Shown: piece by piece, positions 2,037-64,000 of the stretch
Layout of the letters: the number at the start of each line of letters is the position of its first letter
How positions within the stretch are numbered: the stretch's first letter is position 1
Assembly: GCF_055900595.2 (NCBI RefSeq)
Contig: NZ_CM148325.1
Reading direction: 5' to 3' (one strand)
Length of the DNA: 64,000 bases
Notes under the pieces: model-generated
Databases searched by the model: none
Told to the model about the DNA's origin: nothing
What the model saw: the letters and a program-made list of their open reading frames with translations, nothing else
Program-made: the position numbers and the translations under genes

Positions 2037-2944
2037 AACGCGCTCCGGGTGTGAGACAGATTTTCAAAGGTGAGATCGGCATGAACCAGCAGTGTGCCGC
2101 GACGATGCGCCCAGCAGCCGGTAGAAACAGCAACGCCGATGGTTGACGGATGGCGGGCGGCAGATTCGATATGTACGCCCATCACTGAACTGTTGCCAGT
2201 CAGCCCCTGTGGACCAATCCCCAGACGGTTGAGTCCTTCTTCCAGGCGTAGTTCCAGCTCTGCCGCTTTTGGATTGGGATGGCGGCTGCCAATTGGGCGC
2301 AAAATGGCTTTACGTGAGAGCACAGCGGCGGTTTCCACCGAGGTGGCGATGCCCACGCCTACCAGTACCGGTGGACAGGCGTTTACGGCGAGGGTGGAGA
2401 TATTTTCGAAGACGAATTTCACTACGCCTTCGTAGCCTTCCGACGGCATTAACACTTTCGAACGACCAGGCAACGTGCAGCCGCCGCCTGCCATGTAAAC
2501 TTCGATTTCCGCATCGTCACCGTCGGGGACGATATCCCAGGTGACCCACGGTACGCCGCTGCCGGTATTTTTGCCGGTGTTCACTTCGTCAAAAATTTCT
2601 ACCGCATTGTGACGCAGTGGCGCTTTGACGGTTGCCTCTTCCACGGCTTGCTTAAGAATGCTTTGCAGCTCGCCAAGCAGTGGGAAACGGGAACCGACCT
2701 TAACAAAAAACATGATTTCGCCGGTGTCCTGACAGGCAGGACGATTCAGGTCGATTGCTTTTTGCATGTTGTCGAACATCGTGTGGTAGATGATTTTCCC
2801 CATCGACGACGTTTCGGCATCCTTTAGCTGTTTTAGTTTGTCCACCACGTCATCGGGCATTCGGGTAGAAATCATGGCGGTAAAGTTAGCGACAATCTCC
2901 GTCAACTTATTCACTGCCTGTTGCTTATTACTTTCGCTCATCAT
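2033..2944 (-). CDS. ttdA: L(+)-tartrate dehydratase alpha subunit
   Basis: 303-aa ORF; divergent from LysR regulator ttdR; Fe-S hydrolyase alpha-like sequence. Confidence 0.88.
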
Positions 2945-3150
2945 GGCAACTCCAGTTTATGTATTTGTCTGGAAAAATTCACCGCCACAAACTACCACTA
3001 AAAATGTGGTTTTATATTTTTTGCCGCCGTGAATATGTAATTCACAGTTCGTGAATCAACGCGAAAATAAGAATGAATATTGCGCCAGAGCAGGGAATGG
3101 CAATGTTTTGCGAAATACACTGCGCTTATCATAACTGCGGATAATTAACG

Positions 3151-4083
3151 ATGCTGAATAGCTGGCCTTTAGCCAAAGATTTGCAGGTACTGGTAGAAAT
3201 CGTCCACAGCGGGAGTTTTAGCGCCGCAGCGGCGACGCTTGGGCAGACGCCTGCATTTGTCACCAAGCGGATCCAAATCCTTGAAAATACGCTGGCAACA
3301 ACGCTGCTGAACCGCTCCGCTCGCGGCGTGGCGCTGACTGAAAGTGGCCAACGTTGTTACGAGCATGCGCTGGAAATCCTCACCCAATATCAGAGACTGG
3401 TCGATGACGTCACGCAAATCAAAACGCGCCCGGAGGGGATGATTCGTATTGGCTGTAGTTTTGGTTTTGGGCGCAGCCATATTGCGCCAGCTATTACCGA
3501 ACTGATGCGCAATTATCCTGAGTTACAGGTGCATTTTGAATTGTTCGATCGGCAAATTGATTTAGTGCAGGATAATATTGATCTGGATATTCGTATTAAT
3601 GACGAAATTCCTGATTATTATATTGCGCATCTTTTGACAAAAAATAAACGAATATTATGTGCAGCACCTGAGTATCTGCAAAAATATCCGCAGCCACAAT
3701 CCTTGCAGGAATTAAGTCGTCATGACTGTCTGGTGACCAAAGAGCGCGATATGACCCACGGAATATGGGAGTTGGGGAACGGTCAGGAGAAAAAATCGGT
3801 GAAGGTAAGCGGGCACCTTTCCTCCAATAGCGGCGAGATTGTGCTGCAATGGGCGCTGGAAGGAAAAGGAATTATGCTGCGTTCTGAGTGGGATGTTTTA
3901 CCGTTTCTGGAGAGTGGCAAACTGGTGCGAGTATTGCCGGAGTATGCACAAAGCGCCAATATCTGGGCTGTTTACCGGGAGCCGCTCTATCGCAGCATGA
4001 AATTACGTGTCTGCGTGGAATTTCTGGCAGCATGGTGCCAGCAGCGGCTGGGCAAGCCCGACGAAGGCTATCAGGTTATGTAG
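3151..4083 (+). CDS. ttdR: LysR-family transcriptional activator of ttdAB
   Basis: 310-aa ORF with N-terminal HTH (LysR type) and substrate-binding domain; divergent from ttdA. Confidence 0.88.
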
Positions 4084-8443: not shown

Positions 8444-9649
8444 TTACGCCGCCTTACGGGCGCGTCCTTTACGGACTGACGGCAATATTTGTCCTGCCGC
8501 CATGACTTCAAAACCTGCTGTTAATATATTGCGAGCGCCGTTTACATCGGCGTTTGCCGTATAGCCGCACGCGGTACAGATAAAGCTCGCCTGCGTCCTG
8601 CGGTTATTTTTCGATGTATGCCCACAACATGCGCATTTCTGACTGGTGTACGCCGGATTAATCGCCAGCACATCACCGCCGCGCCATGCCTGCTTATATT
8701 CGAGCTGGCGGCGCATTTCTGCCCAGCCCTGATCCAGTATCGCCCGGTTAAGACCTGATTTTGCCGCGACGTTGCGCCCCGGCTGGTCTACCGTACCCGC
8801 TGCTGATTTTGACATGTTCGAAACCTTTAAATCCTCAATGACTATCATCGCGTGGTTTTTGCTGATCGTCGTCGTGGTTTTATGAAGGTAATCGCGGCGG
8901 ATGTTTGCGATATGAGAGTGGAAACGGGAAATCTTCGCTTTCTGCTTTTTCCAGTTGGCGGAGAATTTAACCATCCGGGCCAGACGGCGCTGTAAGCGAG
9001 CCAGCTTATCCTGATTTTTTTTAAAGCTGTTTACCGGTTCAAAGACCGTGCCGTCTGAAAGTGTTGCCAGCTTTGTTATACCTGCATCCAGGCCTATTGC
9101 GCTGGTCGATGCGTGAATCGGATCGGTAACAGCTAATTCGACCTGAAAAGACACATACCAGTGTCCGGCATGCTGGCTGATGGTGCAATTTTTAATGACG
9201 CCTTCAATCTTCCGGGACTGACGAAATTTAACCCAGCCCAGTCCTGACGAGAGTTTCACACGGCCATAATCCAGCCCACAATATTTGCTGAAATTGACGA
9301 ACCGGATAGAGTCGCAGCCTTTGGTTTTCTTTTTGAAAACGGGCTTTTCAGCCGTCAGGGATTTATCAAAACAGCGATCCCATGCGCTCCGCAGGTCTTT
9401 CAGTTTCTGCTGGAGGTTGTCAGTGTAACCCTCAGCAAGAAAGGCCAGCTCAGGGAGTTTTTTCCAGCCCGTAAGTCGTTTATTCAGGTCGAAAGCTGAC
9501 GGAATTTTTCCGCCCGCGTCATGAATGCTCAGTGTTTCATTCAGTGCATAGTTCCAGACAAAGCGAGCGCAACCGCACAACTGACGCAACCTTTGCGCCT
9601 GCTGGTCAGTGGGGTAGAGCCTGTATTTATATGCTTTCTGGATTAACAT
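8444..9649 (-). CDS. tnpB: TnpB (OrfB) RuvC-like putative RNA-guided endonuclease of IS200/IS605 family
   Basis: 401-aa ORF; RuvC-I (AIGLDAGI), RuvC-II (IVIEDLKV), zinc finger CACCGH...CTACGY, RuvC-III (NADVNGARNI) all present. Confidence 0.9.
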   Translation of the reverse strand: MLIQKAYKYRLYPTDQQAQRLRQLCGCARFVWNYALNETLSIHDAGGKIPSAFDLNKRLTGWKKLPELAFLAEGYTDNLQQKLKDLRSAWDRCFDKSLTAEKPVFKKKTKGCDSIRFVNFSKYCGLDYGRVKLSSGLGWVKFRQSRKIEGVIKNCTISQHAGHWYVSFQVELAVTDPIHASTSAIGLDAGITKLATLSDGTVFEPVNSFKKNQDKLARLQRRLARMVKFSANWKKQKAKISRFHSHIANIRRDYLHKTTTTISKNHAMIVIEDLKVSNMSKSAAGTVDQPGRNVAAKSGLNRAILDQGWAEMRRQLEYKQAWRGGDVLAINPAYTSQKCACCGHTSKNNRRTQASFICTACGYTANADVNGARNILTAGFEVMAAGQILPSVRKGRARKAA

Positions 9650-9661
9650 TTTGCATTCAGT

Positions 9662-10114
9662 ATGTGGTTATTTAGAATGTACAATATATCCACATTTTTT
9701 TGGGAGGATCAATACGTGTGCGAAATCAATCGTTCACGCTATTCAGCTTACCTGTTGCATGTTCACGTTGTTTTTATGACAAAATACCGCCGTCCAGTTT
9801 TTGGTGAATTGCATCATGCAAACATGCGTCAGTATGTAGCGGAGGTATGCGCGGACTTTGGCGCCGAGTTAAAGGAATGTGACGGCGAGGCAGATCATGT
9901 TCACATGCTGATTGAATACCCACCGTTGGTGCAACTCACAAAGCTGGTAAACAGCCTTAAGTCCGTTACCAGTAGGCGGCTGCGGAATGATTTTATTGAT
10001 TTGCGCGCCGCGTATTCAAAGCCCGTACTCTGGTCACGCTCTTATTTCATCGGTTCATGTGGTGGAGCACCGCTGGAAGTTGTGAAAAAGTATATTCAGA
10101 ATCAGCGTGGCTGA
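9662..10114 (+). CDS. tnpA: IS200/IS605-family Y1 (HUH) transposase TnpA
   Basis: 150-aa ORF; HVHML (HuH) motif and C-terminal catalytic Tyr region (SYFIGSCGG); true start may be internal to the track ORF. Confidence 0.82.
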   Translation: MWLFRMYNISTFFWEDQYVCEINRSRYSAYLLHVHVVFMTKYRRPVFGELHHANMRQYVAEVCADFGAELKECDGEADHVHMLIEYPPLVQLTKLVNSLKSVTSRRLRNDFIDLRAAYSKPVLWSRSYFIGSCGGAPLEVVKKYIQNQRG

Positions 10115-15830: not shown

Positions 15831-15909
15831 CCGGAAAGCGGTTCACAGATCTCGCTTCGAACCAGGCAGGCCTATTGACGCTGTTGTTTTTTCAACCTAA
15901 AGTAAAGGA

Positions 15910-16058
15910 ACAAGGGTAAGGGAGGATTTCTCCCCCCTCTGAATTGGTTGTTAATAAGCCTGGAAACTTACTAGTAACAACACAATCAGTATGATGACGA
16001 ACTTCATCATAACCCTTTCCTTCTATAAGGCCCCTTCTTCGGGAGGGGCTTTCCCGTT
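15910..16058 (+). ncRNA. sibD: Sib-family antisense antitoxin RNA (predicted), fully overlapping ibs copy 1
   Basis: Plus-strand promoter TTGACG(15875-80)-17nt-TAAAGT(15898-903); hairpin gcccct-tcttcggg-aggggc at 16029-16049 followed by T-rich tract. Ends approximate. Confidence 0.5.
15951..16010 (-). CDS. ibsD: Ibs-family type I toxin, 19 aa (MMKFVIILIVLLLVSFQAY)
   Basis: Minus-strand ATGATG at 16010, stop at 15951-15953; hydrophobic peptide matching the Ibs toxin pattern; symbol by position (ibsD/ibsE assignment uncertain). Confidence 0.7.
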   Translation of the reverse strand: MMKFVIILIVLLLVSFQAY

Positions 16059-16286
16059 TCAGCCCCTTGCTGACTCCCCGATTGTTGATGAGCGCCAGAC
16101 CCCGCGCAATGCTTTCCCAGAGGCAGTTTTGCCTTCCCCGAGCAGTCACGCAAAACGCTGCAACAGCCTGATCATTTGCAGTTTTTTGTGGAACACAGAT
16201 ATAAAAAATCCCCGGTTTTTTGGGCCAGGGATATGTGTTAATGAAACCTTCTTGACGCTGATTTTTTTTCAACCTAAAGTAAAGGA

Positions 16287-16434
16287 ACAAGGGTAAGGGA
16301 GGATTTCTCCCCCCTCTGAATGGCCGTTAATAAGCGTGGAAACTTATCAGTAACAGCACAATCAGTATGATGACGAACTTCATCATAACCCTTTCCTTAT
16401 GTAAGGCCCCTTCCTCGGGAGGGGCTTTCCCGTT
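16287..16434 (+). ncRNA. sibE: Sib-family antisense antitoxin RNA (predicted), copy 2
   Basis: Promoter TTGACG(16252-57)-17nt-TAAAGT(16275-80); terminator hairpin 16405-16425 + T tract. Ends approximate. Confidence 0.5.
16327..16386 (-). CDS. ibsE: Ibs-family type I toxin, 19 aa (MMKFVIILIVLLLISFHAY)
   Basis: Second repeat copy; minus-strand ATGATG at 16386, stop 16327-16329. Confidence 0.7.
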   Translation of the reverse strand: MMKFVIILIVLLLISFHAY

Positions 16435-16624
16435 TCAGCCCCTTGCTGACTCCCCGATTGTTGATGAGCGCCAGACCCCGCGCAATGCTTTCTCTTATGC
16501 AGTTTTCTCTTCCCCGAGTTGGCTCGCAAAACGCTGTAACAACCTGATCATTTGTACTTTTTAGCGGAACGCAGATATAAAAAATCCCCGGCTTTTTGGG
16601 CCAGGGATGTTCATAGTTGAAAAT

Positions 16625-20820: not shown

Positions 20821-21528
20821 AAATATCCTCCGGCATAGCCGGAGGTTTTTCAAATGCGCCTGTAAGGCTCTGTTACCAGCCGCGCCCTAACAGGCGCATA
20901 CGATCTGACATTTGCATTCAACTTCGTTACTTACGGCCCGTAAACGGGCTGCCCGGATATGGAATCGATAACTGCTCCCCCATTTTATCCTCTTCAAGCT
21001 GGTGCTTTATGTAGTCCTGTATCTTCGCCGTGTTCTTACCCACCGTATCGACATAGTACCCTCGGCACCAGAACTCCCTGTTTCTGTATTTGAATTTCAA
21101 ATCCCCAAACTGCTCGTAAAGCATCAGACTGCTTTTCCCTTTCAGATATCCCATAAAGCCGGATACGCTCATTTTGGGTGGGATTTCCACAAGCATATGG
21201 ATATGATCTGCGCAGCACTCTGCTTCCAGAATCCGTACGCTTTTCCACTCACACAGCTTTCTCAAAATACTGCCTATCGCCCTACGCTTCTCTCCGTAAA
21301 ACGCCAGTCTTCGGTATTTCGGCGCAAAAACTATGTGATATTTACAGTTCCAGCGGGTGTGCGCTAAGCTCTTTTCGTCCCCCATTGGGACCCCCTTTTG
21401 ATTTCTTGTTTGACACTTGCAGTTGCCAGACCGCAAGGTGTTTTAACAAATCAAAAGGGGTTTTAATAACTGGCTCAAAGCTGAAAGCTTTCCGGAACCC
21501 CCAGCCTAGCTGGGGGTTTTCTGTGCAC
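20821..21528 (-). mobile_element. IS200 insertion sequence (~708 bp); ends inferred (+/-20 bp)
   Basis: 152-aa IS200 TnpA; left end (high coordinate) inferred from hairpins at 21495-21517 and 21391-21460, which match the recalled IS200 leader positions (nt 12-34 and 69-138). Confidence 0.65.
20927..21385 (-). CDS. tnpA: IS200 transposase TnpA (Y1/HUH)
   Basis: MGDEKSLAHTRWNCKYHIVFAPKYRR...HIHMLVEIPP...; 152 aa from second in-frame ATG. Confidence 0.9.
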   Translation of the reverse strand: MGDEKSLAHTRWNCKYHIVFAPKYRRLAFYGEKRRAIGSILRKLCEWKSVRILEAECCADHIHMLVEIPPKMSVSGFMGYLKGKSSLMLYEQFGDLKFKYRNREFWCRGYYVDTVGKNTAKIQDYIKHQLEEDKMGEQLSIPYPGSPFTGRK

Positions 21529-32783: not shown

Positions 32784-33099
32784 TTTTTAACCTCAAGGTG
32801 AGACGTTTGCCGACTATAGTACGTCACAGAGCGGTACGGTGAAATTAGCAAAATGTGCAAACTCTTTTGCGAATTTAGCAAAAGTCTGATCTTGCTCCGA
32901 TTCACCGATGCAGGATAAATATTTTCTGAAAATGACAATACTGATAGCCATTCCTCATAATTCCTACTCGCACCGGATTAATTTACAGGTTTGGTTCGGT
33001 TTTTTGGGGATTAAAAATATGGCGTTGGATAAGTAAAAATGAAAATATCAACGCGTCACGTTGATAATTATAAATGGATTTTTATGAGCGTGCTAACAT

Positions 33100-33477: not shown

Positions 33478-34827
33478 TTACCAGCTTACTTTCGCCTCAA
33501 ATCCACCTTGTTCCGCATTCCCAAACTCAACATTCATGCCATGCAGCTTGGCGATTCGCTGGACAATTGAAAGCCCAAGTCCACTGCCGGTAGCGGTTTG
33601 TCCGGGTGGGCGATAGAAGCGTTCGCCAATTCTCGCCAGTGCCTCTGGTGTCACACCGGGGCCGTTATCCCTCACGATGAAATTATCGGCATTCAGCGTG
33701 ACGTCCACCACGCTACCTTGTGGACTGTAGCGCACGGCGTTATCCAGCAAATTTCGCACCAACAAACTTAGCAATAGCGGTTGTCCGGTGCGTTTGATGC
33801 CGTGGGCATTGAGTGTCAGTCGCACGTCAATTTTCGCCTGCTGCGCCGTGTGGTAAATATCCATCACCGACGATTGCAGGAGATCTTCAAGCGGGATCTC
33901 CGCGACGTCCTGAAGGTTATCCAGTGAGTCCAGCCGCGATAGCGTGAGCAGTTGATCAACCAGACGAGTAGCACGATCGATTCCGGAATGTAATTGAAGC
34001 AGCGCTTTTTTCCGCGCCTGCGGATCATCGTCAGAGAGCTGCGCAACTTCGGTTTGCACTTTCAGCGCCGTTAACGGGCTACGAAGTTCGTGAGCTGCGT
34101 CGGAGGTAAAGCGTCGTTCACGAACCATCATCGCATGTGTGCGGGCGAACAGTTGATTCAACGACTCAACCAGTGGACGCACTTCGCTGGGTACGCCCGT
34201 CGCGTTTAGTGGTTTTTCCGAGTCAGGGTCACGCATACGTAGTGCCAGCGCCAGTTTGTTCAGCGGCGCGAGTTCACGACCCAGTAGTACCATCATGATG
34301 ATTAACATAATCGGCAGTGCGACAAGCCACGGGATCAATTGCCCGGCAACAATTGCCAGCGCCATGTCTTCGCGGTATTCCCATTCCTGACCAACAACGA
34401 TGCGATATTTGCCATCAGGTGAGGTCATCCAGACAAAACGCCAGGGATCGTCTTCACCGACCAGTTGCCCGTCAGCAAAACCTTCCCGTTGATAGCTATA
34501 GGGAATATCTTCTCCGTTATCGCCATCGTTAAGGACCATTCTGCCGTCGTGGGTAAAGATGGCAAAGGTCAGCGCATCGTCATCAACATGACCGTGTTTT
34601 AATTTATTTGGCGTCTGTGCCATGCGATCCGCCGCGTTGATTTCGTTGAGATCGAGCGTACTTAACCGTTTGGCAAACAGCATCAGTTGGGTGTCGAACA
34701 ACTCATCGACGTTATCCGTTGTTTGTTTCCAGGCGACAAAGCTGGAAAGCAGCCAGGTCACCGAGGCCAGAATTAAAAAGATTAGCGTCAGCCTGACTCG
34801 CAGACTAAGACGTTGGGTAAATTTCAT
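33478..34827 (-). CDS. qseC: two-component sensor histidine kinase QseC
   Basis: 449-aa ORF with two TM segments, HAMP and H-box (AAHELRSPL) and HATPase domain; 4-bp overlap with qseB. Confidence 0.9.
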
Positions 34828-35483
34828 TTCTCACCTAATGTGTAGCCAATACCATGCACGGTACGAATAAAATCACTACCGAGTTTGCGTCGCAGATGAT
34901 GCACATGCACTTCAACGGCATTACTGGTGACCTCTTCGTCCCAGGTATACAGTTTCTCTTCAATCAGTTTGCGCGGCAGTACTCGACCAGCGTTACGCAT
35001 CAGTAATTCCAGCAGGGCAAATTCTTTTGGTTTCAGCGTTAAGGGTTCGCCAGCCAGCGTGGCGATACGTTTGCCGGGGTCGAGCATGACGTTGCCGTGG
35101 CGCAGCTCGTTGCTGGCCTGGCCGTTGGTTCGGCGCATCAGAGCTTCCAGCCTGGCGGCGACTTCTATCAACGCAAAAGGTTTACACAGATAATCGTCAG
35201 CTCCCAGACGCAGCCCTTCTACACGTTCCGCCAGCGCATCGCGCGCAGTCAGGATTAATACCGGCTCACGCTGACCTTTTTCTCGCCATTCGCGCAAAAT
35301 ATCGCGACCATCCATGCCCGGTAAGGTTAAATCCAGGATCACCGCATCATAAGGTGCGCTATATAGCGCCTCTTTTCCCTGACGACCTTGTGTAAACCAG
35401 TCGACGCTAAAACCCATTTTACTAAGGCCCGTTTTGATGCCGTCGCCAATCAGCATGTCATCTTCTATCAGTAAAATTCGCAT
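34824..35483 (-). CDS. qseB: OmpR-family response regulator QseB
   Basis: 219-aa [18 protein letters not shown]...; receiver + winged helix. Confidence 0.9.
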
Positions 35484-35634
35484 TTTTTCATCCCTGCGAT
35501 AACCATATTTGCTGCCAGTAAACCGTGTTGTAACGCGCTCTGTACAGCACTAAATTTTATTTTTTTCCCTTAAGAAGTTGTTAAGGACTATCTTGTTAAA
35601 TGCTCGAAAACAGACATTAAAGGGAGTAATAAAC

Positions 35635-36027
35635 ATGAAAAAATTCGCAGCAGTAATCGCAGTAATGGCCCTGTGCAGTGCACCGGTGATGGCAGCAGAG
35701 CAGGGCGGTTTTTCTGGTCCATCGGCAACACAAAGTCAGGCCGGAGGATTCCAGGGGCCGAATGGCAGCGTAACGACCGTAGAAAGCGCAAAATCCCTGC
35801 GTGATGACACTTGGGTCACCCTGCGCGGCAATATCGTTGAACGTATCTCTGACGATCTCTACGTGTTCAAAGATGCCAGCGGTACTATCAATGTTGATAT
35901 CGACCACAAACGCTGGAACGGCGTGACGGTGACCCCGAAAGATACCGTTGAGATTCAGGGTGAAGTCGATAAAGACTGGAACTCTGTTGAAATTGACGTC
36001 AAACAGATCCGCAAAGTAAATCCGTAA
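35635..36027 (+). CDS. ygiW: BOF/YgiW-family periplasmic OB-fold stress protein
   Basis: 130-aa product from MKKFAAVIAVMALCSAPVMAAEQGGF...; signal peptide. Confidence 0.85.
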   Translation: MKKFAAVIAVMALCSAPVMAAEQGGFSGPSATQSQAGGFQGPNGSVTTVESAKSLRDDTWVTLRGNIVERISDDLYVFKDASGTINVDIDHKRWNGVTVTPKDTVEIQGEVDKDWNSVEIDVKQIRKVNP

Positions 36028-36079
36028 TTGTTAGCGCTCCCGGGACACGTTCCCGGGAATAATTTCGCAGGGAGGCAAA

Positions 36080-36562
36080 ATGAAAAACCTGACACTGGAT
36101 GTAAATATTATCGATTTCCCATCAATCCCTGTGGCGATGTTGCCACATCGCTGTAGCCCTGAATTGCTCAACTACAGCGTGGCGAAATTTATCATGTGGC
36201 GTAAAGAAACGGGGCTTTCTCCTGTTAACCAAAGCCAGACTTTTGGTGTCGCCTGGGATGACCCTGCCACCACCGTACCGGAAGCGTTTCGCTTTGATAT
36301 CTGCGGCAGCGTTAACGAACCGATTCCCGATAATCGTTATGGCGTGAGTAATGGTGAACTTACCGGTGGACGTTATGCCGTGGCCCGCCACGTTGGCGAG
36401 CTGGACGATATTTCACATACGGTATGGGGCATCATTCGCCACTGGCTGCCTGCAAGCGGCGAGAAAATGCGTAAAGCACCGATTCTGTTTCACTACACCA
36501 ATCTTGCCGAAGGGGTAACAGAGCAGCGACTGGAAACGGATGTTTATGTGCCGTTGGCGTGA
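36080..36562 (+). CDS. ygiV: GyrI-like small-molecule-binding domain protein YgiV
   Basis: 160-aa ORF MKNLTLDVNIIDFPSIPVAMLPHR... Confidence 0.78.
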   Translation: MKNLTLDVNIIDFPSIPVAMLPHRCSPELLNYSVAKFIMWRKETGLSPVNQSQTFGVAWDDPATTVPEAFRFDICGSVNEPIPDNRYGVSNGELTGGRYAVARHVGELDDISHTVWGIIRHWLPASGEKMRKAPILFHYTNLAEGVTEQRLETDVYVPLA

Positions 36563-36899
36563 TGAAGAATCTTTACCGGAGTGTGAGTCAAATCACTCGC
36601 TATCAGTTTAAGTTAACGATGCCACAGGCGTAATGTTGTCCGCTCAGACTCTGACGGCACAGGATTTTGTCCTTCCACACAGAAACCGCCATTGGCGGTT
36701 TTCCGCTGCATAATCCTCAGGATTATGTCTATAGCAAAGAGTTGTATATAAAGGCACATTGGTGCCTTTATCGCCGTCGGAGCACGTCCGGCGGCGCTAT
36801 TCACGCTGATCTCCTGTGACTCGACGCGGCAGATAATGTAGTATCTCCGGCAATATTGCCCCTTTGAAGGCTGGCGAATAAGTTGAGGAATCAGAATTA

Positions 36900-39158
36900 A
36901 TGAGCGATATGGCAGAGCGCCTTGCGCTACATGAATTTACGGAAAACGCCTACTTAAATTACTCCATGTACGTAATCATGGACCGTGCGTTGCCGTTTAT
37001 TGGTGATGGTCTGAAACCTGTTCAGCGCCGCATTGTGTATGCGATGTCTGAACTGGGACTAAATGCCAGCGCCAAATTTAAAAAATCGGCCCGTACCGTC
37101 GGTGACGTACTGGGTAAATACCATCCGCACGGTGATAGCGCCTGTTATGAAGCGATGGTCCTGATGGCACAGCCGTTCTCTTACCGTTATCCGCTGGTTG
37201 ATGGTCAGGGGAACTGGGGCGCGCCGGACGATCCGAAATCGTTCGCAGCAATGCGTTACACCGAATCCCGGTTGTCGAAATATTCCGAGCTGCTATTGAG
37301 CGAGCTGGGGCAGGGGACGGCTGACTGGGTGCCAAACTTCGACGGCACTTTGCAGGAGCCGAAAATGCTGCCTGCCCGTCTGCCAAACATTTTGCTTAAC
37401 GGCACCACCGGTATTGCCGTCGGTATGGCGACCGATATTCCACCGCATAACCTGCGTGAAGTGGCTCAGGCAGCAATCGCATTAATCGACCAGCCGAAAA
37501 CCACGCTCGACCAGCTGCTGGATATCGTGCAGGGGCCGGATTATCCGACTGAAGCGGAAATCATCACTTCGCGCGCCGAGATCCGTAAAATTTACGAGAA
37601 CGGACGTGGTTCAGTGCGTATGCGCGCGGTGTGGAAGAAAGAAGATGGCGCGGTGGTTATCAGCGCATTGCCGCATCAGGTTTCAGGTGCGCGTGTACTG
37701 GAGCAAATTGCTGCGCAAATGCGCAACAAAAAGCTGCCGATGGTTGACGATCTGCGCGATGAATCTGACCACGAGAATCCGACCCGTCTGGTGATTGTGC
37801 CGCGTTCCAACCGTGTGGATATGGATCAGGTGATGAACCACCTCTTCGCAACCACCGATCTGGAAAAGAGCTATCGTATTAACCTCAATATGATCGGTCT
37901 GGATGGGCGTCCGGCGGTGAAAAACCTGCTGGAAATCCTTTCCGAATGGCTGGTGTTCCGCCGTGATACCGTGCGCCGCCGTCTGAACTATCGTCTGGAG
38001 AAAGTCCTCAAGCGCCTGCATATTCTGGAAGGTTTGCTGGTGGCGTTTCTCAATATCGACGAAGTGATTGAGATCATTCGCAATGAAGATGAACCGAAAC
38101 CGGCGCTGATGTCGCGCTTTGGCCTCACGGAAACTCAGGCGGAAGCGATCCTCGAACTGAAACTGCGTCATCTCGCCAAACTGGAAGAGATGAAGATTCG
38201 CGGTGAGCAGAGTGAGCTGGAAAAAGAGCGCGACCAGTTGCAAGGCATTCTGGCGTCCGAGCGTAAAATGAATAACCTGCTGAAGAAAGAACTGCAGGCA
38301 GACGCGCAAGCCTATGGTGACGATCGTCGTTCGCCGTTGCAGGAACGCGAAGAAGCGAAAGCGATGAGCGAGCACGACATGTTGCCGTCTGAACCTGTCA
38401 CCATTGTGCTGTCGCAGATGGGCTGGGTACGCAGCGCTAAAGGCCATGACATCGACGCGCCGGGCCTGAATTATAAAGCGGGTGATAGTTTCAAAGCAGC
38501 GGTGAAAGGTAAGAGCAACCAACCGGTAGTGTTTGTTGACTCCACCGGTCGTAGCTATGCTATCGACCCGATTACGCTGCCGTCGGCACGTGGTCAGGGC
38601 GAGCCGCTCACCGGCAAATTGACGTTGCCGCCTGGGGCGACCGTTGACCATATGCTGATGGAAAGCGACGATCAGAAACTGTTGATGGCTTCCGATGCGG
38701 GTTACGGTTTCGTCTGCACCTTTAACGATCTGGTGGCGCGTAACCGTGCAGGTAAGGCCTTAATCACTTTACCGGAAAATGCCCATGTTATGCCGCCTGT
38801 GGTGATTGAGGACGCTTCTGATATGCTGCTGGCAATCACTCAGGCAGGCCGTATGTTGATGTTCCCGGTAAGCGATCTGCCGCAGCTGTCGAAGGGCAAA
38901 GGCAACAAGATTATCAACATTCCATCGGCAGAAGCCGCGCGTGGAGAAGATGGTCTGGCGCAACTGTACGTTCTGCCGCCGCAAAGCACGCTGACCATTC
39001 ATGTTGGGAAACGCAAAATTAAACTGCGTCCGGAAGAGCTACAGAAAGTCACTGGCGAACGTGGACGCCGCGGTACGTTGATGCGCGGTTTGCAGCGTAT
39101 CGATCGTGTCGAGATCGACTCTCCTCGCCGCGCCAGCAGCGGCGATAGCGAAGAGTAG
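36900..39158 (+). CDS. parC: DNA topoisomerase IV subunit A
   Basis: 752-aa ORF; active-site AAMRYTE motif. Confidence 0.95.
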
Positions 39159-55800: not shown

Positions 55801-55813
55801 CTGAGAGATCCCC

Positions 55814-57022
55814 TCATAATTTCCCCAAAACGTAACCATGTGTGAATAGATTTTGAGTAAGCAGGGTTGCAGCCACGAGTGAGTCTTCCCTTGTTATTGT
55901 GTAGCCAGAATGCCGCAAAACTTCCATGCCTAAGCGAACTGTTGAGAGTACGTTTCGATTTCTGACTGTGTTAGCCTGGAAGTGCTTGTCCCAACCTTGT
56001 TTCTGAGCATGAACGCCCGCAAGCCAACATGTTAGTTGAAGCATCAGGGCGATTAGCAGCATGATATCAAAACGCTCTGAGCTGCTCGTTCGGCTATGGC
56101 GTAGGCCTAGTCCGTAGGCAGGACTTTTCAAGTCTCGGAAGGTTTCTTCAATCTGCATTCGCTTCGAATAGATATTAACAAGTTGTTTGGGTGTTCGAAT
56201 TTCAACAGGTAAGTTAGTTGCTAGAATCCATGGCTCCTTTGCCGACGCTGAGTAGATTTTAGGTGACGGGTGGTGACAATGAGTCCGTGTCGAGCGCTGA
56301 TTTTTTCGGCCTTTAGAGCGAGATTTATACAATAGAATTTGGCATGAGATTGGATTGCTTTTAGTCAGCCTCTTATAGCCTAAAGTCTTTGAGTGACTAG
56401 ATGACATATCATGTAAGTTGCTGATAGGTTTCCAGTTTTCCGCTCCTAGGTCTGCATATTGTACTTTTCCTCTTACTCGACTTAACCAGTACCAACCCAG
56501 CTTCTCAACGGATTTATACCATGGCACTTTAAAGCCAGCATCACTGACAATGAGCGGTGTGGTGTTACTCGGTAGAATGCTCGCAAGGTCGGCTAGAAAT
56601 TGGTCATGAGCTTTCTTTGAACATTGCTCTGAAAGCGGGAACGCTTTCTCATAAAGAGTAACAGAACGACCGTGTAGTGCGACTGAAGCTCGCAATACCA
56701 TAAGCCGTTTTTGCTCACGGATATCAGACCAGTCAACAAGTACAATGGGCATCGTATTGCCCGAACAGATAAAGCTAGCATGCCAACGGTATACAGCGAG
56801 TCGCTCTTTGTGGAGGTGACGATTACCTAACAATCGGTCGATTCGTTTGATGTTATGTTTTGTTCTCGCTTTGGTTGGCAGGTTACGGCCAAGTTCGGTA
56901 AGAGTGAGAGTTTTACAGTCAAGTAAGGCGTGGCAAGCCAACGTTAAGCTGTTGAGTCGTTTTAAGTGTAATTCGGGGCAGAATTGGTAAAGAGAGTCGT
57001 GTAAAATATCGAGTTCGCACAT
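55814..57022 (-). CDS. tnp: IS10 transposase (IS4 family, DDE)
   Basis: 402-aa ORF MCELDILHDSLYQFCPELHLKRLNSLTLACHALLDCKTLTLTELGRNLPTKARTKHNIKRIDRLLGN... Confidence 0.95.
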   Translation of the reverse strand: MCELDILHDSLYQFCPELHLKRLNSLTLACHALLDCKTLTLTELGRNLPTKARTKHNIKRIDRLLGNRHLHKERLAVYRWHASFICSGNTMPIVLVDWSDIREQKRLMVLRASVALHGRSVTLYEKAFPLSEQCSKKAHDQFLADLASILPSNTTPLIVSDAGFKVPWYKSVEKLGWYWLSRVRGKVQYADLGAENWKPISNLHDMSSSHSKTLGYKRLTKSNPISCQILLYKSRSKGRKNQRSTRTHCHHPSPKIYSASAKEPWILATNLPVEIRTPKQLVNIYSKRMQIEETFRDLKSPAYGLGLRHSRTSSSERFDIMLLIALMLQLTCWLAGVHAQKQGWDKHFQANTVRNRNVLSTVRLGMEVLRHSGYTITREDSLVAATLLTQNLFTHGYVLGKL

Positions 57023-57083
57023 TTTGTTGTCTGATTATTGATTTTTGGCGAAACCATTTGATCATATGACAAGATGTGTATCC
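57015..57083 (+). ncRNA. IS10 RNA-OUT antisense RNA (predicted from IS10 coordinates)
   Basis: Corresponds to IS10 bp 115-47; sequence tcgcacattttgttgtctgattattgatttttggcgaaaccatttgatcatatgacaagatgtgtatcc is antisense to the transposase start; GATC (dam) site in the pIN -10 region. Confidence 0.5.
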
Positions 57084-57129
57084 ACCTTAACTTAATGATT
57101 TTTACCAAAATCATTAGGGGATTCATCAG

Positions 57130-57138
57130 GGCAAAGTG
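57130..57138. repeat. 9-bp target site duplication (GGCAAAGTG), right copy
   Basis: Identical to 55792-55800. Confidence 0.85.
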
Positions 57139-57604
57139 GGTATTACCGGATTTTGCTATGGCGGTGGTGTATCGAACGCGGCGGCTGTCGCGTATCCGGA
57201 ACTGGCCTGCGCGGTGCCGTTTTATGGTCGTCAGGCACCCACTGCCGATGTGGCGAAGATTGAAGCGCCTTTACTGCTCCACTACGCGGAACTGGATACC
57301 CGAATCAACGAGGGCTGGCCCGCTTACGAGGCGGCGTTGAAAGCCAATAATAAGGTCTATGAGGCGTATATCTATCCGGGGGTTAATCACGGATTCCATA
57401 ATGATTCCACGCCCCGTTATGACAAATCTGCCGCCGATCTTGCCTGGCAAAGGACGCTGAAATGGTTCGATAAATATCTCTCCTGATAGGTTTATCTCTT
57501 ACGGGATTACGTCTTAAACAAGCATGAAAAAATAGCGTGCGCAAAAGTCGTTCTTTGCCTAAAATATCGCTATATATGACAATATATAGCGAATGAGGTG
57601 AACG

Positions 57605-57892
57605 ATGAATAACCATTTTGGTAAAGGCTTAATGGCGGGATTAAAAGCAACGCATGCCGACAGTGCGGTTAATGTGACAAAATACTGTGCCGGTTATAAA
57701 CGCGGTTTTGTATTAGGCTACTCACACCGGATGTACGAAAAGACCGGAGATCGCCAGCTTAGCGCCTGGGAAGCGGGGATTCTGACGCGCCGCTATGGAC
57801 TGGATAAAGAGATGGTAATGGATTTCTTTCGTGAGAATAATTCCTGTTCTACGTTGCGCTTTTTTATGGCCGGTTATCGCCTCGAAAATTGA
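57605..57892 (+). CDS. yghW: DUF2623 protein YghW
   Basis: 95-aa [38 protein letters not shown]... Confidence 0.75.
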
Positions 57893-58080
57893 TCAAACAT
57901 ACGTATTATCTTGCTTTAATTAATTACACTAATGCTTATTCCCTTCGTTTTAGTGCCCCGCCGCAGTATCATGATATCGATAACCATAATAAATGTGTGG
58001 TAAATGGCGCATCGATCGCATTATTGATTTTGCGATTGAGGCAAAATATATGCCAGGTCTTCGCAACGGAATAACTATAA

Positions 58081-59199
58081 ATGACTGGAGATAACACCCT
58101 CATCCATTCTCACGGCATTAACCGTCGTGATTTCATGAAGCTTTGTGCAGCATTAGCCGCCACCATGGGGTTAAGTAGCAAAGCCGCTGCAGAGATGGCC
58201 GAATCGGTTACTAACCCGCAGCGTCCGCCAGTTATCTGGATTGGCGCGCAGGAGTGCACCGGTTGTACGGAATCTCTGCTTCGTGCAACGCATCCAACGG
58301 TAGAAAACCTCATGCTGGAGACGATCTCTCTGGAGTATCACGAAGTGCTTTCCGCCGCCTTCGGTCATCAGGTCGAAGAGAACAAACATAACGCTCTTGA
58401 GAAGTACAAAGGGCAGTATGTGTTAGTGGTAGATGGTTCCATCCCATTAAAAGATAATGGTATTTATTGCATGGTTGCTGGTGAGCCGATTGTGGATCAC
58501 ATCCGCAAAGCGGCGGAAGGCGCAGCAGCCATTATCGCTATCGGTTCCTGCTCTGCGTGGGGCGGTGTTGCTGCAGCTGGAGTTAACCCAACTGGCGCTG
58601 TCAGCCTGCAAGAAGTTCTGCCGGGCAAAACCGTTATCAACATTCCGGGCTGCCCACCGAACCCGCACAACTTCCTCGCGACCGTTGCGCACATCATCAC
58701 TTACGGCAAACCGCCGAAACTGGATGACAAAAACCGTCCGACTTTCGCCTATGGCCGTCTGATTCACGAACACTGCGAACGCCGCCCGCACTTCGATGCT
58801 GGTCGTTTTGCCAAAGAGTTCGGTGATGAAGGCCACCGCGAAGGCTGGTGCCTGTACCACCTCGGCTGTAAAGGGCCAGAAACTTACGGCAACTGCTCAA
58901 CGCTGCAATTCTGCGATGTTGGTGGTGTGTGGCCGGTGGCGATTGGTCACCCGTGCTATGGCTGTAACGAAGAAGGTATCGGCTTCCATAAAGGCATCCA
59001 TCAGCTTGCCAACGTCGAAAACCAGACTCCGCGTTCGCAGAAACCGGATGTTAACGCTAAAGAGGGCGGCAACGTCTCTGCGGGCGCTATCGGTTTGCTC
59101 GGCGGTGTGGTTGGGCTGGTTGCCGGTGTCAGCGTGATGGCGGTGCGTGAACTGGGTCGTCAGCAAAAGAAAGATAACGCTGACTCACGGGGAGAATAA
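58081..59199 (+). CDS. hybO: [NiFe] hydrogenase 2 small subunit
   Basis: 372-aa ORF with Tat signal ([16 protein letters not shown]) and Fe-S cysteine motifs. Confidence 0.95.
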
Positions 59200-59201
59200 C
59201 C

Positions 59202-60188
59202 GTGAACAGACGTAATTTTATTAAAGCAGCCTCCTGCGGGGCATTGCTGACGGGCGCGTTGCCGTCTGTCAGTCATGCGGCTGCTGAAAACCGCCCGCCA
59301 ATTCCGGGATCGCTGGGGATGTTGTATGACTCGACGCTGTGCGTAGGCTGCCAGGCTTGCGTCACTAAGTGTCAGGATATCAACTTCCCTGAACGTAACC
59401 CACAAGGGGAACAGACCTGGTCGAATAACGACAAACTGTCGCCGTACACCAATAACATTATCCAGGTGTGGACCAGCGGCACGGGAGTCAACAAAGACCA
59501 GGAAGAGAACGGCTATGCGTACATTAAGAAACAGTGTATGCACTGCGTCGATCCGAACTGTGTCTCCGTGTGCCCGGTCTCCGCGCTGAAAAAAGATCCG
59601 AAAACCGGCATTGTCCATTACGACAAAGATGTGTGCACCGGCTGCCGTTACTGCATGGTCGCCTGCCCGTACAACGTGCCGAAGTACGACTACAACAACC
59701 CGTTTGGTGCGCTGCATAAGTGCGAGCTGTGCAACCAGAAAGGTGTGGAACGTCTTGATAAAGGCGGTCTGCCTGGCTGCGTAGAAGTGTGCCCGGCGGG
59801 CGCGGTGATTTTTGGTACGCGTGAAGAGCTGATGGCGGAGGCGAAAAAACGTCTGGCGCTGAAGCCTGGCAGCGAATACCACTATCCGCGTCAGACGCTG
59901 AAATCTGGCGACACTTACCTGCATACGGTGCCGAAATATTATCCGCATCTGTACGGCGAGAAAGAGGGCGGCGGTACTCAGGTACTGGTACTGACGGGTG
60001 TGCCTTATGAAAATCTCGACCTGCCGAAACTGGACGATCTTTCTACTGGTGCGCGTTCCGAACATGTTCAACACACCCTGTATAAAGGCATGATGCTACC
60101 ACTGGCTGTGCTGGCGGGCTTAACCGTGCTGGTTCGTCGCAACACCAAAAACGACCATCACGACGGAGGAGACGATCATGAGTCATGA
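59202..60188 (+). CDS. hybA: hydrogenase 2 4Fe-4S ferredoxin-type component
   Basis: 328-aa ORF with Tat-like signal ([13 protein letters not shown]) and multiple CxxCxxCxxxCP motifs. Confidence 0.92.
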
Positions 60189-61356
60189 TCCACAACCGCT
60201 GGGCGGCAAAATCATCAGTAAACCGGTCATGATTTTTGGACCGTTAATCGTCATCTGTATGCTCCTGATTGTGAAGCGTCTGGTGTTCGGTCTGGGCTCT
60301 GTCTCTGACCTGAACGGCGGCTTCCCGTGGGGCGTGTGGATCGCGTTTGACCTGTTGATCGGCACCGGCTTCGCCTGTGGCGGCTGGGCGCTGGCGTGGG
60401 CGGTATACGTCTTTAACCGTGGGCAATACCATCCGCTGGTACGTCCGGCACTGTTGGCAAGTCTGTTTGGTTACTCACTGGGTGGCTTGTCGATCACTAT
60501 CGACGTGGGGCGCTACTGGAACCTGCCGTACTTCTACATTCCGGGTCACTTCAACGTGAACTCGGTACTGTTCGAGACGGCGGTCTGTATGACCATCTAC
60601 ATCGGCGTGATGGCACTGGAGTTTGCTCCGGCACTGTTTGAACGTCTGGGCTGGAAAGTGTCGCTACAGCGTCTGAACAAGGTGATGTTCTTCATCATCG
60701 CGCTCGGCGCGCTGCTGCCAACTATGCACCAGTCTTCAATGGGGTCGCTGATGATCTCGGCGGGCTACAAGGTGCATCCGCTGTGGCAAAGCTATGAAAT
60801 GTTGCCGCTGTTCTCGCTGTTGACGGCGTTCATCATGGGCTTCTCGATTGTCATCTTTGAAGGTTCGCTGGTGCAGGCGGGTCTGCGTGGCAACGGTCCG
60901 GATGAAAAGAGCCTGTTCGTCAAACTGACCAACACCATCAGTGTGTTGCTGGCGATTTTCATCGTGTTGCGCTTTGGCGAGCTGATCTATCGCGACAAGC
61001 TGTCGTTAGCGTTTGCCGGTGACTTCTACTCCGTGATGTTCTGGATTGAAGTCCTGCTGATGCTCTTCCCGCTGGTTGTTCTGCGTGTGGCGAAGCTGCG
61101 TAATGATTCCCGCATGCTGTTCCTGTCAGCATTGAGCGCACTGTTAGGTTGTGCAACCTGGCGTCTGACCTATTCGCTGGTGGCATTCAACCCGGGCGGC
61201 GGTTACGCCTACTTCCCGACCTGGGAAGAACTGTTGATTTCTATTGGTTTTGTGGCTATTGAGATTTGCGCTTACATCGTACTCATTCGTCTACTGCCGA
61301 TACTTCCTCCTTTAAAACAAAACGATCATAATCGTCATGAGGCGAGCAAAGCATGA
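60178..61356 (+). CDS. hybB: hydrogenase 2 integral membrane subunit (NrfD/PsrC-like)
   Basis: 392-aa polytopic membrane ORF; 11-bp overlap with hybA. Confidence 0.92.
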
Positions 61357-63056
61357 GCCAGAGAATTACTATTGATCCGGTAACCCGAATTGAAGGGCAT
61401 TTACGCATCGATTGCGAAATCGAAAATGGCGTCGTTTCGAAAGCATGGGCTTCCGGTACCATGTGGCGCGGCATGGAAGAGATCGTGAAAAACCGCGATC
61501 CGCGCGATGCATGGATGATTGTGCAACGTATCTGTGGCGTATGTACTACCACTCACGCGCTGTCTTCTGTCCGTGTGGCAGAGAGCGCGCTGAATATCGA
61601 CGTTCCGGTTAACGCGCAATACATCCGTAACATCATTCTGGCTGCGCACACCACGCATGACCATATCGTTCATTTCTATCAGCTTTCAGCGCTGGACTGG
61701 GTGGACATCACTTCTGCACTGCAAGCTGACCCAACCAAAGCCTCGGAAATGCTGAAAGGCGTTTCGACCTGGCATCTGAACAGCCCGGAAGAGTTCACTA
61801 AAGTTCAGAACAAGATCAAAGATCTGGTTGCCAGCGGTCAGTTGGGTATTTTCGCTAATGGCTACTGGGGGCACCCGGCAATGAAACTGCCGCCGGAAGT
61901 GAACCTGATTGCGGTAGCGCACTACCTGCAGGCGCTGGAGTGCCAGCGTGACGCTAACCGCGTCGTGGCGCTGCTGGGCGGTAAAACGCCGCACATTCAG
62001 AACCTGGCGGTAGGTGGTGTCGCGAACCCGATCAACCTCGACGGTCTGGGTGTGCTGAACCTTGAGCGCCTGATGTACATCAAGTCTTTCATCGACAAAC
62101 TGAGCGACTTTGTTGAGCAGGTTTACAAGGTTGATACCGCGGTTATCGCCGCGTTCTATCCGGAATGGCTGACGCGCGGCAAAGGTGCGGTGAACTACCT
62201 GAGCGTGCCGGAATTCCCGACCGACAGCAAAAACGGCAGCTTCCTGTTCCCGGGCGGCTACATTGAGAATGCGGATCTGTCCTCGTATCGCCCGATCACT
62301 TCCCACTCCGATGAATACCTGATCAAAGGCATTCAGGAAAGCGCGAAGCACTCCTGGTATAAAGACGAAGCGCCGCAGGCACCGTGGGAAGGTACCACCA
62401 TTCCGGCTTATGATGGTTGGTCTGACGACGGGAAATATTCCTGGGTGAAATCACCGACTTTCTACGGCAAAACGGTAGAAGTGGGTCCGCTGGCTAATAT
62501 GCTGGTGAAACTGGCGGCAGGTCGCGAATCTACCCAGAATAAACTGAATGAAATCGTTGCGATTTATCAGAAACTGACTGGCAACACGCTGGAAGTGGCG
62601 CAGCTGCACTCCACGCTGGGCCGTATTATTGGTCGTACCGTTCACTGCTGCGAATTGCAGGATATCCTGCAAAACCAATACAGTGCACTGATCACCAATA
62701 TCGGCAAAGGCGATCACACCACCTTCGTGAAACCGAACATTCCGGCAACGGGTGAGTTCAAAGGTGTTGGCTTCCTCGAAGCGCCGCGCGGTATGCTCTC
62801 TCACTGGATGGTTATTAAAGACGGTATCATCAGCAACTACCAGGCGGTTGTTCCATCAACCTGGAACTCTGGCCCGCGTAACTTCAATGATGACGTCGGT
62901 CCTTACGAGCAGTCGCTGGTGGGTACGCCGGTTGCCGATCCGAATAAACCGCTGGAAGTGGTGCGTACCATTCACTCCTTCGACCCGTGCATGGCCTGTG
63001 CGGTACACGTAGTGGATGCCGACGGCAACGAAGTGGTTTCAGTGAAGGTTCTGTAA
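61353..63056 (+). CDS. hybC: [NiFe] hydrogenase 2 large subunit
   Basis: 567-aa ORF; N-terminal RICGVCTTTH and C-terminal DPCMACAVH Ni-binding motifs. Confidence 0.95.
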   Translation: MSQRITIDPVTRIEGHLRIDCEIENGVVSKAWASGTMWRGMEEIVKNRDPRDAWMIVQRICGVCTTTHALSSVRVAESALNIDVPVNAQYIRNIILAAHTTHDHIVHFYQLSALDWVDITSALQADPTKASEMLKGVSTWHLNSPEEFTKVQNKIKDLVASGQLGIFANGYWGHPAMKLPPEVNLIAVAHYLQALECQRDANRVVALLGGKTPHIQNLAVGGVANPINLDGLGVLNLERLMYIKSFIDKLSDFVEQVYKVDTAVIAAFYPEWLTRGKGAVNYLSVPEFPTDSKNGSFLFPGGYIENADLSSYRPITSHSDEYLIKGIQESAKHSWYKDEAPQAPWEGTTIPAYDGWSDDGKYSWVKSPTFYGKTVEVGPLANMLVKLAAGRESTQNKLNEIVAIYQKLTGNTLEVAQLHSTLGRIIGRTVHCCELQDILQNQYSALITNIGKGDHTTFVKPNIPATGEFKGVGFLEAPRGMLSHWMVIKDGIISNYQAVVPSTWNSGPRNFNDDVGPYEQSLVGTPVADPNKPLEVVRTIHSFDPCMACAVHVVDADGNEVVSVKVL

Positions 63057-63550
63057 TGCGTATTTTAGTCTTAGGGGTTGGCAATATTTTGCTGACCGAT
63101 GAAGCCATCGGTGTGCGGATTGTCGAAGCGTTAGAGCAACGATATATTCTGCCAGATTATGTTGAGATCCTCGATGGCGGCACGGCGGGAATGGAGCTGC
63201 TTGGCGACATGGCAAATCGTGATCATCTGATCATTGCGGATGCCATTGTGTCGAAGAAGAGCGCGCCGGGAACGATGATGATCCTGCGGGATGAAGAAGT
63301 TCCGGCGTTGTTTACCAACAAAATCTCTCCGCATCAGCTTGGCCTGGCCGACGTATTGTCGGCCCTGCGCTTCACCGGTGAGTTTCCGAAAAAGCTGACC
63401 CTGGTCGGCGTGATCCCGGAATCGCTGGAGCCACACATCGGCTTAACGCCGACGGTTGAAGCAATGATTGAACCTGCGCTTGAGCATGTTCTGGCTGCGC
63501 TGCGCGAATCAGGCGTGGAAGCCATCCCACGGGAGGCGATTCATGACTGA
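63056..63550 (+). CDS. hybD: hydrogenase 2 maturation endopeptidase
   Basis: 164-aa product from MRILVLGVGNILLTDEAIGVRIVE...; start overlaps hybC stop. Confidence 0.9.
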   Translation: MRILVLGVGNILLTDEAIGVRIVEALEQRYILPDYVEILDGGTAGMELLGDMANRDHLIIADAIVSKKSAPGTMMILRDEEVPALFTNKISPHQLGLADVLSALRFTGEFPKKLTLVGVIPESLEPHIGLTPTVEAMIEPALEHVLAALRESGVEAIPREAIHD

Positions 63551-64000
63551 AGAGATAGCAGGTTTCCAGACCTCCCCGAAGGCGCAAGTACAGGCAGCGT
63601 TTGAAGAAATTGCCCGGCGTTCGATGCACGATCTCTCTTTTCTGCATCCTTCAATGCCGGTGTATGTTTCTGACTTTACGCTGTTCGAAGGTCAGTGGAC
63701 GGGGTGTGTGATCACCCCGTGGATGCTGAGTGCGGTTATCTTCCCCGGCCCGGATCAACTCTGGCCACTGCGCAAAGTGAGTGAAAAAATTGGTCTGCAA
63801 CTGCCGTATGGCACCATGACCTTTACCGTTGGCGAACTGGACGGTGTTTCGCAATACCTCTCCTGCTCGCTGATGTCGCCGCTTTCGCACAGCATGTCGA
63901 TTGAAGAGGGCCAACGCCTGACGGATGACTGCGCACGAATGATCCTTTCGCTGCCAGTCACGAATCCGGATGTACCACACGCAGGGCGTCGCGCCCTGCT
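63543..64000 (+). CDS. hybE: hydrogenase 2-specific chaperone HybE, partial (runs off window end)
   Basis: ATG 63543 (MTEEIAGFQTSPKAQVQAAFEEIARR...), 8-bp overlap with hybD; open to the window edge. Confidence 0.8.
   Translation, partial: MTEEIAGFQTSPKAQVQAAFEEIARRSMHDLSFLHPSMPVYVSDFTLFEGQWTGCVITPWMLSAVIFPGPDQLWPLRKVSEKIGLQLPYGTMTFTVGELDGVSQYLSCSLMSPLSHSMSIEEGQRLTDDCARMILSLPVTNPDVPHAGRRAL

Follow-up and report, generated by a model that had tools for sequence, protein, structure and literature searches.

A probable never-filled mqsRA site and the remnants of ygiS in the 337-bp ygiV-parC spacer of an Escherichia coli genome

The window analysed here, i.e. the whole stretch of 64,000 nucleotides of contig NZ_CM148325.1 (NCBI RefSeq assembly GCF_055900595.2), carries on its minus strand the ORFs of qseC (33478-34827) and qseB (34824-35483), followed on the plus strand by ygiW (within the ORF 35578-36027) and ygiV (36080-36562, stop codon TGA at 36560-36562). 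The ygiV CDS encodes a 160-aa GyrI-like/AraC effector-binding-domain protein, which shares 98% amino acid identity with K-12 YgiV over 160 aa, and RefSeq gives the gene the same name in the near-identical genome NZ_CP098223.1. The next gene on the plus strand is parC (36900-39158), coding for the 752-aa subunit A of DNA topoisomerase IV (TIGR01062, 1425.7 bits), with plsC and then ftsP downstream. Between the end of ygiV at 36562 and the start of parC at 36900 lies a spacer of only 337 bp (36563-36899), a short distance that had been pointed out in a preliminary description of this DNA and is borne out by the ORF coordinates. The same description had placed ygiS, mqsA and mqsR between parC and ygiV in K-12. 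The MG1655 annotation agrees: the order is parC-ygiS-mqsA-mqsR-ygiV (b3019-b3023), and ygiV does not adjoin parC directly but is separated from it by 2,775 bp and these three genes. Because the same spacer occurs in 13 independent complete genomes, it is not an artefact of the assembly.

The closest complete genome, NZ_CP098223.1 (strain Z0117EC0005), is 99.97% identical to the window in blastn comparisons, apart from two IS insertions, which shows that the window comes from a close relative and not from this very genome. A 1,329-bp insertion at 55801-57129, absent from NZ_CP098223.1, interrupts yghX and contains an ORF for a 402-aa IS4-family transposase (55814-57022, minus strand); its size fits IS10. 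Beyond it, at 57130-64000, the identity to NZ_CP098223.1 falls from 99.97% to 98.9%, a drop in the sequence comparison that suggests a recombination tract. Another insertion absent from this genome, of approximately 704 bp (20824-21527), is situated between yqiD and ribB and includes an ORF for an IS200/IS605-family transposase (20927-21436, minus strand). By collinearity with NZ_CP098223.1, the ygiF-ygiM interval (approximately 8444-10114) harbors the tnpA gene of ISEc41 (IS200/IS605) together with a gene for the RNA-guided TnpB/InsQ protein.

The spacer was dissected by blastn against K-12 and EDL933, and all segments described in the following are given on the plus strand. Its first two bases (TG, 36563-36564) are still collinear with K-12 past the ygiV stop codon; together with the following AAGAA they form the empty mqsRA site (36563-36569), of which the five bases 36565-36569 are absent from K-12. 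The adjacent segment, 36570-36639, is a remnant of the ygiV-ygiS intergenic region, i.e. of the ygiS 5' leader from about -103 to -31, with 88.6-89% identity to K-12 and EDL933; its counterpart in K-12 is found downstream of mqsA. Within this remnant, 36594-36618 differs from K-12 by 6 substitutions in 25 bp (GCTATCAGTTTAAGTTAACGATG), and the part GCTATCAG of this stretch is common to the Escherichia lineages MOD1-EC7003 and SCPM-O-B-8794. Since these outgroup lineages share it, part of the leader divergence would represent an old allele rather than decay.

The start codon of ygiS is gone in the window. An internal scrap of the gene (nt 315-347, codons about 105-116) follows at 36641-36673, with 91% identity over 33 nt and E values from 1e-6 to 7e-9, and it is collinear with the other ygiS scraps. 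A possible third scrap, a weak 13-nt exact match to nt 896-908 (blastn-short E 0.008), lies at 36681-36693. Folding of 36640-36745 placed this segment in the left arm of a hairpin at 36682-36700 (AAACCGCC-ATT-GGCGGTTT), which is new and located on a deletion junction. The 3' end of ygiS (nt 1538-1608, the last 23 codons) is preserved at 36692-36762 with 96% identity to K-12, but its stop codon is mutated from TGA to TGG at 36760-36762; RefSeq annotates a partial pseudogene at the corresponding position of NZ_CP098223.1. The native ygiS-parC intergenic region upstream of parC (36763-36899) is intact. It belongs to a 208-bp block (36692-36899, spacer positions 130-337) that is 98.1% identical to EDL933, and the longer stretch 36692-37400 shows 98.0% blastn identity with K-12. 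Two adjacent hairpins from the ygiS 3' end and terminator region, corresponding to inverted repeat I1, occupy 36748-36796 (MFE -32.6 kcal/mol, z = -5.4 versus shuffled sequences), and their sequence is conserved in K-12 and in the 545-bp-type spacer of strain VG12A2 described below.

The spacer contains only two ORFs. The one on the minus strand (36613-36804, 63 aa) is without a family match, and the one on the plus strand (36667-36819, 50 aa) comprises the last 24 YgiS residues and reads through the mutated stop codon. The latter matches NF007287 at profile positions 512-535 of 535 with 39 bits, compared to a cut-off of 1098, and a full-length YgiS of approximately 535 aa (PRK09755/NF007287, ABC-transporter substrate-binding protein) was not found in the window. 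The preliminary description had seen no plausible ORF here, but the spacer is not blank, since it holds collinear scraps of ygiS and terminator hairpins. A simple consensus scan of 36400-37000 found no promoter or terminator, and in Rfam neither 35400-37100 nor the 545-bp-type locus matched an RNA family, a snoRNA match with E 0.68 being noise.

The absence of MqsRA from this locus, also proposed in the preliminary description, is supported for the entire window, including the DNA directly beyond the spacer. The best tblastn match of K-12 MqsR (approximately 98 aa) against the 64 kb reached E 0.82, which is noise, that of MqsA (approximately 131 aa) E 1.6, and blastn with the 927-bp K-12 cassette returned only an 18-nt chance match. 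The ygiV-mqsR spacer of K-12 carries two ACCT-N4-AGGT palindromes, while none of the MqsA operator type ACCT-N(2-4)-AGGT occurs in 36563-36899; the single match in the 64 kb, at 32790, compares with 1.27 expected by chance. A tandem repeat pair of approximately 358 bp (15875-16232 and 16252-16608, 91.6% identical) corresponds to a region of NZ_CP098223.1 in which two type I toxin genes of the Ibs family are annotated. From this correspondence, the window possesses toxin-antitoxin loci of another type than MqsRA.

Toxin-antitoxin modules are mobile, and the preliminary description had raised the question whether mqsRA resides elsewhere in the genome of the strain; a prophage or a plasmid would be candidate places. 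Nevertheless, such a relocation appears very unlikely, given that the 64-kb window has no mqsRA match and that all 2,313 mqsRA matches in 5,426 complete E. coli genomes are chromosomal, none on a plasmid, with a median of one place per genome. Furthermore, none of the 13 complete genomes that have the window-type spacer showed mqsRA at the DNA level in any part, i.e. the spacer of the window and its close variants. For this search we used a chimeric query of the window locus and the reverse-complemented K-12 mqsRA coding sequence, which is sensitive to about 65-70% identity, so that a paralogue of the MqsR/MqsA family below approximately 65% nucleotide identity would escape. The query found exactly two places in each of the 13 genomes and at least two in every genome of the collection. 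The universal second place is a cross-match to the gyrA paralogue (66% over 484 nt, E 5e-21 at database size). As this cross-match is seen in all genomes and the other place is the locus itself, the 13 contain no mqsRA-like DNA at blastn sensitivity.

At the mqsRA site itself, the blastn breakpoints fall at positions 2754 and 3682 of the reverse-complemented K-12 sequence: window 36000-36564 aligns to 2190-2754 and 36570-36639 to 3682-3751. The 927-bp block in between consists in K-12 of the ygiV-mqsR spacer with operator and promoter, mqsR, mqsA and a terminator made of a hairpin and a T-run. In contrast, the uninterrupted junction GATG-(A/G)(A/G)GAA-TCTTTACCGG is shared by the window, the 545-bp type, E. 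albertii, E. whittamii and three other Escherichia lineages. The outgroups were obtained by a YgiV scan with one genome per species, which recovered five other Escherichia lineages, and in all five the ygiV stop codon is followed by 4-6 nt and (T/G)CTTT(A/T)(C/G)(C/T)GGAGT without a cassette. The site pentamer (AAGAA or GGGAA) is present in all outgroups and absent in K-12. Three of these lineages, E. albertii, E. whittamii and strain SCPM-O-B-8794, have the arrangement ygiV, full-length ygiS and parC without mqsRA; the other two, Escherichia sp. E1V33 and MOD1-EC7003, retain ygiS fragments, likewise without mqsRA. The mqsRA-free order ygiV-ygiS-parC also exists in E. coli O157:H7 EDL933 and in UM146. 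Because the outgroups as well as EDL933 and UM146 lack mqsRA at an uninterrupted junction, the empty site is most probably the original condition of the genus and the cassette of K-12 an insertion. Hence, with respect to mqsRA the window would show the ancestral state and K-12 the derived one. The cassette would never have entered this haplotype, in which the site remained empty as in the ancestor (ygiV stop, TG, AAGAA, TCTTTACCGGAGTG); K-12-type strains have there, in place of 5 nt, a self-contained module of 927 bp.

The situation of ygiS appears to be different. This gene is most probably ancestral at the locus, and its absence in the window a derived loss via multiple internal deletions. 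We assume at least two, probably three, such deletions between ygiV and parC with a total of approximately 1.5 kb, which would have removed the start codon together with about 94% of the coding sequence and would have left the short collinear scraps, a stop codon that is now mutated and the terminator hairpins of the original gene. The preliminary description had treated the absence of ygiS and mqsRA as a joint feature. Both are indeed missing, but the spacer very likely combines two unrelated histories, an mqsRA cassette that was never inserted and a ygiS gene that was destroyed by internal deletions.

In K-12, the three genes are contiguous in the interval, and the window is devoid of all three, as would be expected if one single deletion had taken mqsR, mqsA and ygiS together from a K-12-like ancestor. 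Yet, this is extremely improbable. The 70 bp at 36570-36639, which lie between mqsA and ygiS in K-12, would have vanished in a deletion reaching from mqsR to ygiS, and their retention points to separate events; the internal ygiS scrap survives as well. Moreover, such a deletion from a K-12-like ancestor does not account for a pentamer that K-12 is missing and all outgroups possess, nor for the mqsRA-free ygiV-ygiS-parC arrangement in EDL933, UM146, E. albertii, E. whittamii and SCPM-O-B-8794.

It could also be argued that mqsRA was formerly present in the lineage and disappeared later, either through precise excision or because homologous recombination brought in an allele with the empty site, separately from the erosion of ygiS. 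Recombination is frequent in E. coli, and the identity of at least 99% among the mqsRA cassettes of 2,299 carriers is consistent with movement between lineages, for which the reverse replacement is possible, too. However, the flanks of the site share around 97% identity with VG12A2 as well as with the representatives of phylogroups A, B2 and E, and therefore give no sign of a tract recently imported from those groups. In addition, the part GCTATCAG of the leader remnant, shared with the outgroups and not with K-12, suggests an old native haplotype, and no cassette-derived bases are left at the site. A secondary loss thus seems very unlikely, and we continue with the reading that the cassette never entered this haplotype.

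Among the 5,426 complete E. coli genomes that served as the population sample, the mqsRA cassette is found in 2,299 (42%), always on the chromosome, a count cross-checked by a junction-spanning query, for which about 2,300 genomes gave an alignment split at this breakpoint. Full-length ygiS is present in 4,053 genomes (75%), while ygiV adjoins parC in 1,369 (25%). The window-type spacer is confined to 13 genomes (0.24%): nine of them share at least 99% identity with the window, and the other four form a sub-variant that kept the TGA stop codon and has a K-12-like leader (sister variant L005). Nearly all other genomes with adjoining ygiV and parC have a spacer of 545 bp, as exemplified by NZ_CP128592.1 (strain VG12A2). 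In this common type, which does not include the window, nt 1-22 and 1567-1608 of ygiS surround a foreign filler of 236 bp replacing nt 23-1566. The filler was detected in 1,357 genomes (25%), and an empty mqsRA site contiguous with it in 1,354 (25%). It corresponds to positions 2194-2429 of the VG12A2 locus (L002 in our set) and has partial matches of 83-85% at 195 plasmid sites. Two of these plasmid contexts were inspected; in one the match is found downstream of a gene for an IS3-family transposase, at a distance of a few hundred bp, in the other there is no transposase nearby. Rfam returned no match for the filler.

Two further genomes, BS-04 and BS-01, have 337-bp spacers with 92-93% identity and were considered as divergent carriers of the window type, which was rejected by the alignment of BS-04. 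The spacer of BS-04 (2799-3135 of locus L004, NZ_CP172819.1) is of the 545-bp type, shortened by another internal deletion, and its length of 337 bp is coincidental.

The ygiS breakpoints differ among the window type, the 545-bp type, MOD1-EC7003 and E1V33, which implies at least four independent losses of ygiS in Escherichia. All four patterns are found on mqsRA-free DNA, and the mqsRA site is empty in about 1,367 of about 1,369 ygiS-less E. coli genomes. One may speculate that the loss of ygiS is convergent and contingent on the absence of MqsRA, which would fit selection against a deoxycholate importer in strains that have no MqsR to down-regulate it, in line with the bile-stress model discussed below. 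We consider this unlikely, and a few clonal events together with the ancestry of the empty site are an alternative explanation for the co-absence.

With regard to function, the gene content predicts that the MqsR mRNA interferase, the MqsA repressor and the periplasmic binding protein YgiS are all missing from the cell. The 137 bp native to the upstream side of parC are preserved, and the hairpins should continue to shield this gene against read-through out of ygiW-ygiV, as judged from their predicted fold, the simple consensus scan having given no terminator match. According to Kwan et al. and their bile-stress model, YgiS reportedly promotes the uptake of deoxycholate and MqsR is said to cleave the ygiS mRNA. 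Fraikin et al. (2019; PMC6918082) could not reproduce any effect of MqsRA on deoxycholate tolerance and dispute the work of Kwan et al. (2015). Due to this conflict, any phenotype of the strain is uncertain.

Outside strain characterization the importance of these results is small. They indicate that K-12 represents the derived state at this locus, with MqsRA as an accessory insertion of about 42% of the complete E. coli genomes, and that ygiS, the reported target of MqsR, is itself dispensable and was repeatedly lost. Phenotypes ascribed to MqsRA and YgiS, such as bile tolerance, biofilm formation and persistence, should hence not be generalized from K-12 to the species.

The absence of mqsRA and ygiS is an instance of a documented strain-to-strain polymorphism; what is rare is just the specific pattern in which ygiS was eroded. 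The uneven spread and horizontal acquisition of the toxin-antitoxin modules of K-12 are established, and no toxin-antitoxin system was found to be conserved across four reference strains (reviewed in PMC7167474). Chromosomal type II cassettes in core intergenic regions have been described (Ramisetty and Santhosh, 2016; Fiedoruk et al., 2015; as cited in PMC7167474 and PMC5120126), and a table in PMC5120126 places mqsRA between ygiV and ygiS. Moreover, a pan-genome study of mastitis strains lists mqsR, mqsA and ygiS among the variably present genes (PMC11390585), and the B2 strain NRG857c was reported to be without MqsRA (PMC7232551).

Compared with known arrangements, the locus resembles that of K-12 MG1655 in the genes on either side and the direction in which they run, as well as in the ygiS-parC intergenic region, with 97-98% nucleotide identity. 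It differs in that K-12 possesses an intact ygiS of 1,608 bp in addition to the 927-bp mqsRA cassette, whereas the window has 5 nt instead of the cassette and approximately 175 nt of ygiS-derived scraps. The mqsRA-free haplotype of EDL933, UM146, E. albertii and E. whittamii shares an empty mqsRA site of identical structure, but ygiS is full-length there and eroded in the window. With the common ygiS-less haplotype of the 545-bp type, the window has in common the empty mqsRA site, the adjoining ygiV and parC and the retained 3' tail of ygiS; nevertheless, the breakpoints are different and no filler is present, which makes it an independent event. Finally, the locus shows the features of horizontally acquired type II cassettes, i.e. 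presence/absence polymorphism, clean junctions and a syntenic core region, from which it does not differ in kind, the window representing the empty state.
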